Assembly: GCA_025354645.1 (NCBI GenBank)
Contig: JANXML010000158.1
Location: 19,316-83,315 of the forward strand
Length of the DNA stretch: 64,000 nt
Source of the DNA: Arcicella sp.
GTDB taxonomy: Bacteria; Bacteroidota; Bacteroidia; Cytophagales; Spirosomataceae
Direction of reading: 5' to 3'
Shown: positions 17,705-57,208 of the stretch, in pieces
Layout of the letters: every line of letters begins with the position of its first letter
Position numbering within the stretch: the stretch's first letter is position 1
Translations under genes and position numbers: made by a program
The notes under the pieces: generated by a model
What the model was told of the DNA's origin: nothing
Seen by the model: the letters and a program-made list of their open reading frames with translations, nothing else
The model's database searches: none

Positions 17705-18178
17705 TCATTTCTTAACAAAACTCAGCGAAGCCGAATTCATGCAGAAACGTTTTCCAGTTGGCTTTGGACCATCATCAAAAACGTGACCCAAGTGGGCTCC
17801 ACAACGATTACACAACACCTCATCACGTGACATTCCCAGAGAATTATCACTTGAAATTAAAATGTTTTCTTTCTTTACAGGAGCGTAAAATGAAGGCCAA
17901 CCCGTTCCAGATTCAAATTTCGTATCGGAACTAAACAATTCTTGCTTACAACAAACACAATCGTATTTTCCTTTTTGGTGATTATCCCACGTATCACCTG
18001 TGTAAGGACGTTCGGTACCTTTCTGACGAGTAACGGTGTATTGTTCAGGTGTTAATTGCTTTTTCCACTCCATTTCCGTTTTCACTACCTCAAATTTTTT
18101 GGGCTTATCTTGTTGAGTATAACTACTACAAGCGAAAATAATAACTGCAATAAATAAAATTACTCCTAAATTTTTCAT
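17705..18178 (-). CDS. msrB: Peptide-methionine (R)-S-oxide reductase, lipoprotein form
   Basis: Lipobox IFAC; [38 protein letters not shown]. Confidence 0.95.
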
Positions 18179-18361
18179 GTTGATATTTGTGTTTTTAAAT
18201 TAAAAATAAAAAAATTCCAAAATTGGTGAAATACCCTAAATCTCTTTCCTAATACTATATACGAAATAATGGAAGAAAAAGTTTTTACAAATTTATCTAC
18301 TTGATAATCAGCCATTGGTAAGCAAAATGACCAATTTTATAAAAAATATTTTCCTTTTAGA

Positions 18362-35867: not shown

Positions 35868-38753
35868 CTATTTACCCTCAAAAATCCGTTTCACTTCATT
35901 CAATTTTAATAACGCTTCAATGGGAGACATCGTATTAATATCCAAATTTTTTAAAAGGCTTTCAATTTTTTCAGTCTTCGGATTTTTTTCAGCCTCAAAA
36001 ATTGCCATTTGAAAATTCTGTTTAGGCATTTCTCTGATGGTCTGTCTATGTTGTTCTTTTGAACGATTTTTCTCTAATTCCACCAAAATTTCACTGGCAC
36101 GATACACCACATTTTGTGGGATTCCAGCCAATTGAGCCACGTGAATTCCAAAACTATGTTCCGAACCACCTTCTTGCAACTTACGCATAAAAATTACTTT
36201 CCCATTGATTTCTTTTACAGAAACATTGAAATTCTTAACCCTCGAAAAATCATTTGCCAATTCATTCAATTCGTGATAATGCGTAGCAAAAAGCGTTTTC
36301 GGACGACAATCCGAGTGGTTATGCAAGTATTCAGCAATCGCCCAAGCAATCGAAACGCCATCATACGTACTGGTTCCACGACCAATTTCATCCATTAAAA
36401 CGAGACTTCTATCGGAAAGGTTGTTTAGAATACTGGCAGTTTCTGTCATTTCAACCATAAAAGTTGATTCTCCTTTCGAGAGATTATCGCTCGCTCCAAC
36501 TCGGGTAAAAACTTTATCGACTATCCCAATCTTTGCTTCGGTGGCAGGAACAAAACAGCCAATTTGAGCCATTAGAACTATCAATGCGGTTTGCCGTAAA
36601 AGGGCTGATTTCCCTGCCATATTTGGACCCGTAATAATGATAATCTGTTGCGTTACATCATCCAAATATAAATCGTTCGGAACGTATTTTTCACCCAATG
36701 GCAATTGTTGTTCGATTACGGGATGTCGTCCATTAATTACGTTAAGTATCTTACTATCAGTAACTTCTGGCTTTGAATAATTGTTTTTAACCGCCACTTT
36801 TGCAAAATTTGTTAACACATCAAGCACTGCAATTATCTTGGCATTTTGTTGAATTTGGTGGATATATTCGTTCGCAACGTTTACTAATTCGTTAAAAATT
36901 CGTTGCTCGATTACATTGATTTTATCCTCCGCACCCAAAATAGTTTCCTCATATTCTTTGAGTTCGGGCGTGATGTATCTCTCCGCATTTACAAGCGTTT
37001 GCTTACGAATCCAATCTTCGGGAACTTTATCTTTGTGTGAATTAGTCACTTCTAAGTAATATCCAAAAACTCGATTAAACGAAATCTTCAAAGAAGTGAT
37101 ACCCGTACGTTCAATTTCACGGTTTTGAATTTGCATCAAAAAGTCCTTTCCCGTAAAAGCAATAGATAAAAGGGAATCTAAATCTTCATCAATGCCCTGA
37201 CGAATCATCCCGCCCGCATTGCTCAAAACTGGTGGGTCGTCACGAAGTTCTTTCTGGATTTTATCCAATAAAAATTGACAAGGATTTAATTGGTCGGCGT
37301 ACTTAATCAGGATTTGGGATTTAGGATTTGGGATTTGGGATTTGGTAAAATTATTCTCTAAATTATTATCTTCTTTAACTGTTAATTGTTCACTGTTAAC
37401 TGTTAACTGTTTATATTCTGGATTCAAAACTTCATTTAAAAAATCGTCACTACTAATTTCATTTCTTTCAGTATCATCGTCAAAAATGCCTCCACCCACT
37501 GCTAATTCACGAGCATCTTTTTCTGACCGAAAACCTCCTAAAACCTCCAAAGGCTTTCCATTAATCAATTGCCAACGGATGGGCTCGATGTGAAGTAAGG
37601 CTTTTTTAAGCGATAAAAGTTCTCTTGGATTAATTCTTCTCACAGCAACCTTGGAGATAAGTCGCTCTAAATCACCAATTTGCTTCAAATGTGATTCTAA
37701 ACTTTCTCGTAATTCTTCATTTTCTTTAAAGTAAGAAACCGTATTTAATCTTTCTTGAATTTGTGATTTTTCTTTGAGGGGCAAAACCAACCATTTTCTC
37801 AATAACCTTGCCCCCATGGGAGTCATGGTGTTGTCCAAAATCTGAATTAACGGAATGCCGCCTTCTTGCTGTGCCGATACCAATTCCAAGTTCCGAATCG
37901 TGAATTTATCTAACCATACATATTTTTCTTCCTCTAAACGATTGATGCGAGAAATGTGTCCTACTTGCTTGTGTTCAGTCTCCGATAAATAGTGCATAAT
38001 CACACCCGCCGCAATGATTCCTTCGGTGAGCGATTCAATGCCAAAACCTTTTAAGTTGTTAGTTTTGAAGTGATTAGTTAAAAGTGGATACGCAAAATCG
38101 TGTTTGAAAGCCCAATCATCTAAGCCAAATGTTAGGTATTTCTCGCCAAATATTTGGGTATATTCCTGACGATTTTTTTTACAAAATAAGACTTCCGAAG
38201 GGGAAAAACTTTGTAATAATTTTTCAATATAAGACACATTTCCTTGCGAACATAAAAACTCTCCCGTTGAAATATCTAAGAATGCAATCCCCACAACTTC
38301 CTTTGAAAACGATGAAAAACTGATTGAAGCCAAGTAATTATTTTGCTTCATGTCCAACACATTATCGTTGTAGGAGACCCCAGGCGTAACCAATTCCGTA
38401 ACCCCTCTTTTCACGATTCCTTTTGCCGTTGCGGGGTCTTCTAATTGGTCGCAAATCGCTACTCGTTCGCCCGCACGCACCAATCTGGGGAGATAATTGT
38501 CCAAGGAATGATGAGGAAAACCTGCCAAATGATCGTCGGCATTTCCGTTATTTCGTCGGGTTAAAGTAATGTTCAGAATCTTTGAAGCACGAACGGCATC
38601 TTCCCCAAAAGTCTCATAAAAATCACCCACCCGAAACAGCAACATTGCCCCAGGATATTTAAGTTTTATCTGGTTGTATTGTTTAGAGAGGGGCGTTTCG
38701 TGGGATTTTTTCTCTTTATTTTTATCGTTAGGATTATTGGAAGGTCTTGCCAT
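35868..38753 (-). CDS. mutS: DNA mismatch repair protein MutS with an internal insertion
   Basis: FRVGDFYE, TGPNMAGKS, STFMVEM, MDEIGRGTST, FATHYHEL, SFGIHVA. Confidence 0.97.
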   Translation of the reverse strand: MARPSNNPNDKNKEKKSHETPLSKQYNQIKLKYPGAMLLFRVGDFYETFGEDAVRASKILNITLTRRNNGNADDHLAGFPHHSLDNYLPRLVRAGERVAICDQLEDPATAKGIVKRGVTELVTPGVSYNDNVLDMKQNNYLASISFSSFSKEVVGIAFLDISTGEFLCSQGNVSYIEKLLQSFSPSEVLFCKKNRQEYTQIFGEKYLTFGLDDWAFKHDFAYPLLTNHFKTNNLKGFGIESLTEGIIAAGVIMHYLSETEHKQVGHISRINRLEEEKYVWLDKFTIRNLELVSAQQEGGIPLIQILDNTMTPMGARLLRKWLVLPLKEKSQIQERLNTVSYFKENEELRESLESHLKQIGDLERLISKVAVRRINPRELLSLKKALLHIEPIRWQLINGKPLEVLGGFRSEKDARELAVGGGIFDDDTERNEISSDDFLNEVLNPEYKQLTVNSEQLTVKEDNNLENNFTKSQIPNPKSQILIKYADQLNPCQFLLDKIQKELRDDPPVLSNAGGMIRQGIDEDLDSLLSIAFTGKDFLMQIQNREIERTGITSLKISFNRVFGYYLEVTNSHKDKVPEDWIRKQTLVNAERYITPELKEYEETILGAEDKINVIEQRIFNELVNVANEYIHQIQQNAKIIAVLDVLTNFAKVAVKNNYSKPEVTDSKILNVINGRHPVIEQQLPLGEKYVPNDLYLDDVTQQIIIITGPNMAGKSALLRQTALIVLMAQIGCFVPATEAKIGIVDKVFTRVGASDNLSKGESTFMVEMTETASILNNLSDRSLVLMDEIGRGTSTYDGVSIAWAIAEYLHNHSDCRPKTLFATHYHELNELANDFSRVKNFNVSVKEINGKVIFMRKLQEGGSEHSFGIHVAQLAGIPQNVVYRASEILVELEKNRSKEQHRQTIREMPKQNFQMAIFEAEKNPKTEKIESLLKNLDINTMSPIEALLKLNEVKRIFEGK
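37310..37344. repeat. In-frame heptamer array inside mutS (GGATTTR x5)
   Basis: GGATTTG GGATTTA GGATTTG GGATTTG GGATTTG; encodes KSQIPNPKSQI. Confidence 0.9.
37378..37412. repeat. In-frame heptamer array inside mutS (ACTGTTN x5)
   Basis: ACTGTTA ATTGTTC ACTGTTA ACTGTTA ACTGTTT; encodes KQLTVNSEQLTV. Confidence 0.9.
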
Positions 38754-40398: not shown

Positions 40399-40416
40399 GT
40401 TATTTGGTTGAAAGTT

Positions 40417-40449
40417 AACGCAGGCAGGGTTTTGAACCCTGCCTGCGTT
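40417..40449. repeat. GC-rich perfect 15-bp hairpin (REP-like) inside the operon
   Basis: AACGCAGGCAGGGTT-TTG-AACCCTGCCTGCGTT; no U-tract. Confidence 0.8.
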
Positions 40450-40485
40450 CTCACAATAAATTTAAGAAAATTAAACTTCCCCAAA

Positions 40486-40941
40486 ATGAAAATTGATTTT
40501 ACCGTTAATGGCAATCCCCAAACAGTTGATGTGCCTGAAAATATGCCTCTTTTGTGGGTGATTCGTGATGTTTTGGATATGAAAGGCACAAAGTTCGGTT
40601 GTGGACAAGCGGCTTGTGGATCTTGCACGATTCATATTGACGGTGATGCCGTGCGTTCGTGTTCTTTTGCGGCACAATATGCTCAAAATAAGCACATTAC
40701 GACAATTGAAGGGCTTTCAACTGCTGAAAAATTACACCCCGTTCAACAGGCTTGGATTGAGGAAATTGTGCCTCAATGTGGGTATTGCCAGCCAGGTTTT
40801 ATGATGTCAGTAGCTAATTTACTGGATAAAATACCAAATCCTACCGATGAAGAAATTGATGACTATATCACGAATATTTGTCGTTGTGGAACGTATTATC
40901 GTATGCGAAAAGCCATTCATCGGGCAGTTCAACTGAAATAA
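40486..40941 (+). CDS. 2x[2Fe-2S] small subunit (IorA/CoxS-like)
   Basis: [36 protein letters not shown]. Start at ATG 40486. Confidence 0.93.
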
Positions 40942-40942
40942 G

Positions 40943-41179
40943 GATGTTCGTTTTTCGATGTTCGATGTTCGATGTTTGGGATTCGATGTCCGTTTTCGAT
41001 GTTTGGGATTCGATGTTCGATTTTTGATGTTCGGATTATCAATATTTAGAAACGTAAATAATATCAAATAACAAACATCGTAAACTCGAATATCGAAAAA
41101 CAAACATCGAAACTCTAATATCGAAAAACGAATATCGAAAACTCGAACATCTAACATCGAAAAACAAGCATCGAAAAAA
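40943..41179. repeat. Large paired inverted heptamer cassette (GATGTTC / GAACATC)
   Basis: About 13 GATGTTC-like units (40943-41032), ~40-nt spacer, about 15 GAACATC-like units (41073-41179). Confidence 0.92.
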
Positions 41180-41182
41180 AAT

Positions 41183-43363
41183 ATGAAAAAGAAAACGGTA
41201 AATCGTCGAGGTTTTATCCTCAAAACGGGCGTTGGTCTGGGGGTTTTGTTGGGCGTTGGCGTAATTGCTTGCGGACCTCTAAGAAGAACTAGTGCACAAA
41301 AAGTTGATGAAGGTCCCCCTGGATATAAAAATGAATACGAAGCCTTCATTTGGTTTGAATTACAACAAGATGGAAGCATAATTCTACATTCTCCGAAAGT
41401 TGAAATGGGGCAAGGAATTTTTACAGCCTTAGCTCAAATTGCCGCTGATGAACTTGAAATGGATTTTAAAAATATTAAAGTTGTTCATGCAACTACCGCT
41501 CACGGACCGATTGATTCGCTTTCAACGGGTGGTAGCTTAACGGTTTCGAGTCTTTATCAACCGCTTCGTGAATTGGCTGCCACCATGCGAGAAATGATTA
41601 AAATGAATGCAGCAACCATTATGGGCGTTTCTGCCAATACCTTAACCGTAAAAAACGGTGAAGTAATTGGAACAAATGCAAAATTGTCTTTTGCAGAAAT
41701 TGCCACAAAATCAACTAATTGGAATCTTAAAATAAAGGAGTCAGTACTGAAATCACCGAAAGATTTTACAGTTATTGGCAAACCACTTCCACGCATTGAT
41801 TTAGTGCCAAAGGTGAAAGGCGAAACGTTGTATGGCATTGATTCAACTTTTCCTGATATGCTTTTTGGGTCGGTTGTTCGCCCACCCGTTTTTGGAGCAA
41901 TTTTTAAAAGTGCCGAGGTTGGAAATGCTTCAAATATGCCTGGCGTAGTGAAAGTGGTGATTGAAAAAGATTTTGCAGGGGTCGTTGCAAAGTCTCGTGT
42001 GCAAGCCGAAGATGCGAAAAAAGCCTTGAAAATTAATTGGGGAATGCCCAAGAAATTAGTCAAACAAGCCGATGTTGATGCTTTGGTAAAAGTAGGAGTT
42101 GGAAAAGATGTTAAAATTCAAAAAGAAGGAAATACTGACATTTTGAAGGGGGAGGGAACAATTACCAGAGAATATTTTAGTCCGTTGGGTGTTCATGGAC
42201 ACATTGAACCAAATGGTGCAGCGGCTCATTTTCAAGGTGATAAAGTAGTTATAAAAATGAGTACCCAAGTTGCCAGTATTACCCGTGATGAAGTGTCAAA
42301 AGCGTTGAAATTAGATAAAGAAAATGTTGATATTCAGTCACAATTTTTGGGTGGAGGTTTTGGTAGGAGATTGCAAACACCTCATGCCATCGAAGCCGCT
42401 TTAATGTCAAAAGCAGTTGGAAAGCCCGTTCACGTGTTTTTTGAGCGTACCGAAGAATTTCAAAATGGGGTTTTGCGTCCACCAACGCACAATATTCTAA
42501 AAGCAAAATTAGATGCCAATGGAACTATTGAAGCAATCGAACATCATACTGCGAGTGCCGATGTTGCTTTTAATTCCTCCATTTTAGCCAACGTTTTCAA
42601 ACCATTAAGTGCTTCTTTAGCAGAAGGAATTGTTGGGGCAGATTTTGGTGCTTGGCGAGGCGGCATGATTCATTACAAAAATATCAAAAATTACAGCACA
42701 ACCGCCTACCACAAAGAACTCCCTTTTCAAACCAGTTGGTGGCGTGGTTTAGGACTTTTGGCAAACACATTTGCGATAGAATCTTTCATGGACGAACTCG
42801 CTCATCAATCTAAACAAGATCCTTTGGCTTTCAGATTAAAACACCTTGCCGATGATGAACGAGGGCAATCTATTAAAAATGTTTTAAAGGCAGCTTGTGA
42901 AAAAGCGGGTTGGGGAAAATCCCTCCCAGAAGGGCGTGGAATAGGTTTAGCCTGTTCGATTGACGTAAATACGCCTGTGGCACAAGTGGCAGAAGTTGAA
43001 ATTAAAAATGGTCAAATTAAGGTTAAAAAAGTTACCTGTGCGATTGACCCTGGAATTATTATTAATCCAGATGGCGTAAAAGCACAGTCGGAAGGAGCAA
43101 TTATTATGGGTTTGAGTGCCACACTTTTTGAGGAAGTTACCATTAAAGATGGAAAAGTAATACCAAATGCTTTTGGGTATTATCCAATTGCATACATGCG
43201 TGATGCTCCAGAAATCGAGGTCATTTTATTATCAAGCGGCGATAAACCCCGTGGTGTTGGCGAACCCCCAATTGGACCAATCGGAGCAGCAATTGCCAAT
43301 GCAGTTTTTAATTTGACAGGAAAAAGATTAAATAAAATTCCTTTGCAAATGGATATTTCGTAG
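41183..43363 (+). CDS. Molybdopterin-binding large subunit (IorB / xanthine dehydrogenase family) with Tat-like signal
   Basis: NRRGFILK, KVEMGQG, LGGGFGRR, WWRGLG, NPDGVKAQSEG, GVGEP. Confidence 0.92.
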   Translation: MKKKTVNRRGFILKTGVGLGVLLGVGVIACGPLRRTSAQKVDEGPPGYKNEYEAFIWFELQQDGSIILHSPKVEMGQGIFTALAQIAADELEMDFKNIKVVHATTAHGPIDSLSTGGSLTVSSLYQPLRELAATMREMIKMNAATIMGVSANTLTVKNGEVIGTNAKLSFAEIATKSTNWNLKIKESVLKSPKDFTVIGKPLPRIDLVPKVKGETLYGIDSTFPDMLFGSVVRPPVFGAIFKSAEVGNASNMPGVVKVVIEKDFAGVVAKSRVQAEDAKKALKINWGMPKKLVKQADVDALVKVGVGKDVKIQKEGNTDILKGEGTITREYFSPLGVHGHIEPNGAAAHFQGDKVVIKMSTQVASITRDEVSKALKLDKENVDIQSQFLGGGFGRRLQTPHAIEAALMSKAVGKPVHVFFERTEEFQNGVLRPPTHNILKAKLDANGTIEAIEHHTASADVAFNSSILANVFKPLSASLAEGIVGADFGAWRGGMIHYKNIKNYSTTAYHKELPFQTSWWRGLGLLANTFAIESFMDELAHQSKQDPLAFRLKHLADDERGQSIKNVLKAACEKAGWGKSLPEGRGIGLACSIDVNTPVAQVAEVEIKNGQIKVKKVTCAIDPGIIINPDGVKAQSEGAIIMGLSATLFEEVTIKDGKVIPNAFGYYPIAYMRDAPEIEVILLSSGDKPRGVGEPPIGPIGAAIANAVFNLTGKRLNKIPLQMDIS

Positions 43364-57115: not shown

Positions 57116-57208
57116 GACAGGTTTCCAACCTGTTTTAAAAACTTTGAACTGACAGGTTAGAAACCTGTTTAAAAAACTTTGAACTGACAGGTTAGAAACC
57201 TGTCCTAC
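57112..57208. repeat. GTAG-type REP doublet with internal 35-bp tandem duplication
   Basis: GTAGGACAGGTTTCCAACCTGT ... ACAGGTTAGAAACCTGTCCTAC; 57134-57168 and 57169-57203 are 34/35 identical. Confidence 0.85.

Follow-up and report, generated by a model that had tools for sequence, protein, structure and literature searches.

A clade-specific loop in the MutS protein of Arcicella combines conserved peptide blocks with heptamer repeat arrays

Introduction

What does a tandem repeat with a 7-nt unit do inside the reading frame of a mismatch-repair gene? The question is raised by mutS of a freshwater Arcicella, encoded in a 64,000-nt stretch of DNA (assembly GCA_025354645.1, contig JANXML010000158.1, positions 19,316–83,315; hereafter the window), where two heptamer arrays lie within a long in-frame insertion. 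A preliminary description of this gene had taken the insertion for selfish repeats domesticated as a protein loop, and had proposed that gain or loss of a single unit might serve as a reversible mutator switch. Our analysis points to a different answer: the gene probably encodes a functional MutS1 with a clade-specific mosaic loop, in which peptide blocks under selection are joined by linkers that heptamer arrays have colonised.

Results

An insertion in domain III of an ordinary MutS1

Pfam recognised domains I–V of MutS in order in the 961-residue product (PF01624, PF05188, PF05192, PF05190 and PF00488), all five far above the curated cut-offs with E values of 1e-20 to 1e-84, and the top solved-structure match was E. 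coli MutS (E ~1e-187). As had been claimed, frame and catalytic motifs are intact: the open reading frame (ORF) is open throughout, and its translation contains the Phe-X-Glu mismatch-binding motif GDFYE at residues 43–47, the Walker A motif GPNMAGKS at residues 709–716, and the Walker B-region sequence LVLMDEIGRGTS, including MDEIGRGTS, at residues 784–795. The genome also encodes the MutL partner, a 637-amino-acid open frame on contig C71 with a MutL_C match of 120 bits, and the repair pathway therefore looks complete. Judged from its sequence, the protein appears to be an ordinary, functional MutS1.

Its length is not ordinary, as had also been remarked: aligned MutS proteins of other Cytophagales families span 859–915 amino acids. 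The alignment with E. coli MutS breaks at residues 404/494 of the Arcicella protein against 392/402 of the E. coli chain, where an insertion lying between the helices at residues 389–398 and 477–488 stands in place of ~10 E. coli residues (392–402) and contributes ~80–85 extra ones. Its limits and its sequence are exactly those given in the preliminary description (Table 1).

Table 1. Coordinates of mutS and of the parts of its insertion within the window
Feature	Position	Strand	Protein residues or peptide	Basis or remark
mutS (MutS1) coding sequence	35868..38753	minus	961 aa	five Pfam MutS domains, E. coli MutS match, motifs
Lineage-specific 86-residue insertion in domain III	37308..37565	minus	residues 397-482	alignment break vs E. 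coli MutS
Conserved block A	37521..37562	minus	NGKPLEVLGGFRSE, residues 398-411	conserved in 58 clusters
Variable segment 1	37461..37520	minus	KDARELAVGGGIFDDDTERN, residues 412-431	length and sequence vary
Conserved block B	37413..37460	minus	EISSDDFLNEVLNPEY, residues 432-447	predicted short helix 435-443
Heptamer array 1	37375..37411	minus	QLTVNSEQLTV	TRF, 5.3 copies
Inter-array spacer	37346..37374	minus	KEDNNLENNF	hypervariable length and sequence among relatives
Heptamer array 2	37310..37345	minus	KSQIPNPKSQI	TRF, 5.1 copies

We called presence and absence of the insert from a six-frame search of 30 relatives and an alignment of their MutS proteins. The insert was found in 13 of 18 congeneric genomes, in none of the 13 with an internal stop; the other five, a well-supported clade, have only ~13 extra residues in place of the full insert, and MutS of 12 other families of the order has no insert. 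When the insert columns are left out of the tree, a single gain or loss suffices for this distribution. Against 5.8 billion proteins, a search limited to the insert returned 58 clusters, every one of them MutS: 56 are 947–990 amino acids long, two are pieces without the N-terminal domains, and the source names include 'Arcicella aurantiaca' and 'Arcicella sp.'. Comparison with Cytophagales MutS, a check that had been proposed for the insert, delimits it and marks it as clade-specific. No known Pfam domain matches it. We considered an intein, an intron or another mobile insertion and rejected all three: nuclease motifs, splicing motifs and a matching domain were sought in the insert and not found, and the sequence is in frame and conserved as a peptide.

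Two blocks of the insert are under purifying selection

Two segments of the insert are near-invariant across the 58 clusters, with the consensus NGKPLExxGGxRSE for block A and EISSDDFLNEVLNP(EY) for block B. Among the 13 species, departures from the consensus codons were synonymous rather than nonsynonymous by 50 to 21 in block A and by 34 to 5 in the first 14 codons of block B (residues 432–445). Purifying selection acts on the peptide in both blocks. A tblastn search of the organism's own genome for paralogues or a mobile-element source of the blocks found no other copy; they are therefore not repeat-derived. They would serve either as a functional addition peculiar to the lineage or as something that the loop needs for its structure, and the obvious guesses at a function are a motif that binds a partner or a small packing helix.

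With the 30-sequence alignment as input, AlphaFold2 gave a model of moderate quality, with a mean predicted local distance difference test (pLDDT) score of 67. Both helices flanking the insert are confident, pLDDT falls below 50 for residues 404–477, and block B, in which the model places a short helix at residues 435–443, is probably a small helix. Modelling had been suggested as a check of the loop's position; it presents the insert as a largely disordered loop of core domain III that is likely to be exposed on the surface.

That the blocks hardly vary while their codons change synonymously makes it unlikely that the insert as a whole is neutral junk, left by the expansion of selfish repeats and constrained only by frame, even though the predicted disorder, the range of protein lengths and the existence of a sister clade and of all other families without the insert, to no apparent harm, would agree with such an origin.

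The arrays belong to heptamer families dispersed through the genome

Tandem Repeats Finder (TRF) describes array 1 as TTAACTG (86% matches, score 60; CAGTTAA on the coding strand) and array 2 as GGATTTG (93% matches, score 65; CAAATCC on the coding strand). In coding orientation, array 1 reads ACAGTTA ACAGTTA ACAGTGA ACAATTA ACAGTTA, two identical units followed by variants, and array 2 reads CCAAATC CCAAATC CTAAATC CCAAATC, two units and one more with CTAAATC as the interruption. There are, as had been described, two arrays of about five units from non-complementary families, and the RNA fold of the window's insert is no better than that of shuffled sequences (z = +0.30). Arrays this strong occur 18 times per 1.3 Mb of the real genome and 0, 0 and 0 times in second-order Markov simulations; they are therefore not due to chance. 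The plus strand of array 2, its template strand, is the G-tract heptamer (GGGATTT)n, a feature that relatives do not conserve at this site.

The idea that the insert is built partly from repeat families stands to the extent that both arrays match dispersed families, but only ~24 of the 86 inserted residues come from arrays and the remainder is not repeat-derived. Array 1 also appears to have been purged of stops: a perfect CAGTTAA array contains TAA in every frame within three units, and a CAGTGAA unit stands where such an array would read an in-frame TAA.

The genome (5.36 Mb in 392 contigs, 35.8% G+C) has more TRF rows at period 7 than at any other period, 800 rows spanning 23.7 kb. At least 3.5 copies are present in 505 of them (494 once overlaps are merged), and only 83 of these 505 arrays lie inside ORFs of at least 150 amino acids, though such ORFs make up 81% of the genome: heptamer arrays are depleted in ORFs and mainly intergenic. 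The family of array 1, class AACAGTT, has 20 arrays and that of array 2, class AAATCCC, has five, including arrays of 10 to 14 units on contigs C171 and C194; both families recur outside ORFs of at least 150 amino acids, and tblastn with KSQIPNPKSQI and LTVNSEQLTV gave matches on C171, C194, C101, C291 and C52. Class AACTGAT, the TAACTGA class, is the second commonest here with 41 arrays. TTAGGGA and TTAGGGG arrays (classes AATCCCT and AACCCCT) are also present, 10 of each.

Arrays are often adjacent. Among 134 neighbouring pairs, 81 have complementary units, and in 52 of these the 5' arm has more G and the 3' arm more C, against three in the reverse arrangement; this polarity reads alike on either strand. 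One such cassette lies between genes in the window at 40943–41194, where TRF reports ~13 units of GATGTTC/GATTTTC and then ~12 complementary units of ATCGAAA/ATCGAAC, the family that forms a hairpin inside mutS of the relatives G012 and G017. It directly follows the ORF at 40408..40941, in whose translation cysteine clusters suggest a putative 2Fe-2S subunit. The window also contains, at 57116–57203, 2.5 copies of a 35-nt tandem repeat, GACAGGTTACAAACCTGTTTAAAAAACTTTGAACT, with 92% identity, each unit of which holds the small palindrome ACAGGTT.AACCTGT.

Arrays turn over at fixed sites in the loop

Sequence between the blocks and beyond block B is hypervariable, and the heptamer family found at a given site differs from species to species. 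At the site of array 1, the ACAGTTA of the window is replaced by GGCAGTC in G004, by GCAGTCG in G005 and G002, and by GATGTTC-type units in G012 and G017, and its orthologues include further CAGTNNN units such as AGCAATC. At the site of array 2, CCAAATC is identical in the window and in G004, whose MutS is 93% identical, down to the interruption; elsewhere the units are GAAAATC (G005 and G002), AAAGCTC (G001) and ATCGAAC (G012 and G017). In G012 and G016, variable segment 1 is itself occupied by an array, of AGTTATC/AGTGAAC units encoding SYQLSVNSEQ. A C/G-rich element (PLTPRGG ... PLGAGG) occupies variable segment 1 and the downstream array positions in G009. Elements of this PRGG/PLGAGG type stand in for the arrays, at matching loop positions, in three different genes of three different species: mutS of G009 (locus L011), polA of G004 (L119) and valS of G007 (L135).

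Whole cassettes can be replaced as well. Outside variable segment 2, mutS of G013 and G017 is 91–93% identical in nucleotides; within the segment identity drops to 47%, and there G017 is nearer to the more distant G012 (78%), which indicates wholesale cassette replacement in one lineage of this sister-species pair. The two arms in G017 mutS have complementary sequences, and their fold is significant (-30.4 kcal/mol, z = -4.6); this is the only allele in which the insert folds better than shuffles.

The closest public allele (L111), 97% identical in protein and 87% in nucleotides, has four CAAATCA units where the window has CAAATCC, and a 15-nt GC mini-hairpin, CGGGCGGCGTTCCGC (SGGVPL), nested in array 1. 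A similar mini-hairpin of ~15 nt, CGGGCGGCGAACCGC (SGGEPL), is nested in CAGT-type arrays in G000, in frame in two genes: it lies at C8:~18100–18190 (RNase R), at C83:~98150–98250 (a sensor kinase) and at two sites on C53. These nested hairpins resemble small dispersed repeats that lie within the STRR arrays of cyanobacteria.

Between alleles of 963 and 956 amino acids we found an exact 21-nt deletion, three units, with well-conserved aligned flanks; it is the sole length polymorphism resolved at the DNA level. With this step, and with proteins of 947–990 amino acids, the insert is not fixed in length. Nor is domestication of the repeats supported: nowhere is the protein less conserved than in the array-derived stretches, which one species exchanges for others in the next, and the selected, conserved parts of the insert are the non-repeat blocks A and B.

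The same arrays reside in other core genes

We found 40 arrays located well within ORFs of 250 amino acids or more, 26 ORFs in all. Eight of the host ORFs were scanned against Pfam, and the hosts so named are DnaG primase, a MutS-family paralogue, an acyl-CoA dehydrogenase, an ABC transporter and RNase R, together with three hosts of several arrays: DNA polymerase I (Pol I; two arrays), valyl-tRNA synthetase (ValRS; three) and a 2-oxoacid dehydrogenase E2 acyltransferase (three, in linkers). The peptides QLTVNSEQ, QSAVGSQQSAV, AESRKPKA and SGGEPL recur in host proteins. The inter-domain linker of Pol I undergoes the same family turnover across the genus, and a loop of ValRS contains an array insert of 15–22 residues in some species but not in others. 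The same repeats, with the same dynamics, are therefore found in essential genes. MutS is one permissive host among many.

The paralogue is a 648-amino-acid protein (G000, C180:6192–8138, minus strand) with MutS_V and MutS_III matches; its in-frame array (SEQLSVNSYQL) falls within the stretch that matches ATPase domain V (residues 461–632).

Alleles stay in frame

Phase-variable simple sequence repeat (SSR) contingency loci, and mutator switches that act through repeats in mismatch-repair genes, such as the 6-bp repeats in Salmonella mutL, are natural points of comparison. The mutS arrays share with these systems a tandem repeat in a mismatch-repair gene with a unit that is not a multiple of three, and it had been proposed that they work as a reversible mutator switch: slippage by one 7-nt unit would frameshift mutS and yield transient mutators, and the reverse slip would restore repair. 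A one-unit slip in array 1 would indeed meet the array's own TAA; arrays change their unit number and homogenise over short evolutionary distances; some alleles have at least four perfect units (CAAATCA x4); and mutS is dispensable, so null intermediates would be viable.

The alleles themselves speak against it. None of ~70 is out of frame, whether among the 13 genomes or among the 58 protein clusters, which are near-full-length. When public proteins of 258–822 amino acids were searched for truncated or frameshifted MutS products, with residues 1–482 as the query and words drawn from residues 385–450, none ended at the arrays; just two pieces matched, both without the N-terminal domains but with domain V retained. 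The arrays are without the long uninterrupted tract of a contingency locus: tracts in the window are short and interrupted, with at most about two perfect units, and the unit family is not conserved, so that no particular tract is maintained. Array 2 is unchanged between the window and G004, across a species split, and the one resolved length change is a step of three units. Finally, contingency loci differ from Arcicella in that identical repeats here occupy essential genes (dnaG, valS), where switching would be lethal. A mutator switch is thus unsupported, and we hold it to be very improbable.

That the insert arose by mis-joining of repeats into mutS during assembly or binning of a fragmented metagenome-assembled genome (MAG), as the 392 contigs and the mutS contigs of several relatives that end in or near the gene might suggest, is excluded for practical purposes, since the insert recurs with identical conserved blocks and gene neighbours in independent JGI, ENA, NCBI and Logan assemblies. 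In those public contigs a DUF2071 gene lies upstream of mutS and a large gene downstream, the latter with SASA/Por_Secre_tail domains in two ENA contigs. Among the MAGs, contigs end within or just past mutS at residue 516 in G002, 657 in G009, 273/285 in G005 and 78 in G017, consistent with assemblies breaking at dispersed repeats.

Discussion

How would such a loop come about? Under the reading that we favour, of a functional MutS1 with a mosaic loop, blocks A and B are joined by linkers free to vary in sequence, and these have been occupied by the STRR-like arrays in which the genome abounds, usually as paired and often complementary arms. Slippage, template switching and/or recombination would create the arrays and drive their turnover; selection would pass only variants that are free of stops and in frame, because units change in threes or because lengths are compensated; and the same process would act on many other core genes, in their loops and linkers.

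Two considerations weigh against parts of this account. The case for surface exposure draws on a model of moderate quality (mean pLDDT 67) and on the tolerance of length differences; and the homogenisation of units within an array is hard to explain by three-unit steps alone, so that single-unit, frameshifting intermediates are possible for the non-essential mutS.

We also entertain a bolder proposal, which we think rather unlikely. A dedicated or strongly biased process would write paired, often complementary arrays of ~32 nt, with a fixed 5'-G/3'-C polarity, into DNA that includes the loops of essential proteins, and could swap whole resident cassettes between sister species; MutS domain III would be a recurrent landing pad, and the conserved EISSDDFLNEVL block a new MutS module, for example a partner-binding motif on linkers made of repeats. 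Such a process would operate in Arcicella and perhaps in many bacteria with heptamer-rich genomes.

Whichever process generates them, the arrays in the mutS insert are STRR-like heptamer repeats tolerated in protein loops. The cyanobacterial STRR heptanucleotide repeats were reportedly described by Mazel in 1990. Arrays of the TAACTGA heptamer occur in Beggiatoaceae, Cyanobacteria and a few Bacteroidetes, are translatable in one orientation (LSVISYQ) and break assemblies (MacGregor, 2015, PMC4679880); the Bacteroidetes that this paper lists do not include Arcicella, and it also cites long SSRs (Mrazek et al., 2007). Like the TAACTGA and STRR repeats, and like long SSRs as they are presented there, those of Arcicella are tandem 7-nt units of several families in hundreds of copies; they are over-represented and mostly intergenic, and the mutS units belong to genome-wide families. 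Unlike TAACTGA and STRR arrays, they typically form paired arms with a 5'-G/3'-C polarity (52:3) and lie in frame in core genes.

Two further systems invite comparison. Rickettsia palindromic elements (RPEs), a functional analogy, are ~150 bp long and occur as in-frame insertions within protein-coding genes (Ogata et al., reviewed in PMC10969869). As that review portrays them, RPEs resemble our arrays in being small selfish repeats that sit in frame in many housekeeping genes of unrelated kinds, where the protein can still fold and function; unlike RPEs, which have a conserved peptide and defined families, the Arcicella repeats are ~32-nt arrays of 7-nt units with fast turnover and no conserved element, and only short array peptides, rather than dispersed copies of one element, recur. 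The G-rich heptamers GGGNATC and GGGGAYT of Xanthomonas and Nostoc are capable of forming G-quadruplexes (Rehm et al., 2015, PMC4692102). Like them, the Arcicella arrays are mostly non-coding and have a preferred size of about four units, and the template of array 2 is (GGGATTT)n; unlike them, G-quadruplex potential is not conserved at the mutS site, where relatives have GAAAATC or ATCGAAC.

What the locus shows is that non-triplet microsatellites can live inside essential and repair genes. The arrays that survive preserve the frame and appear purged of stops, and loops predicted to be disordered become fast-evolving sequence. For annotation, such arrays account for the differing lengths and the broken contigs of Arcicella MAGs. 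The tempting reading of a built-in mutator switch falls away as unsupported; the main interest of the locus lies instead in its clear view of cassette turnover and frame filtering, and in the conserved motif of the MutS loop, a clade-specific peptide that can be tested for a role in mismatch repair.

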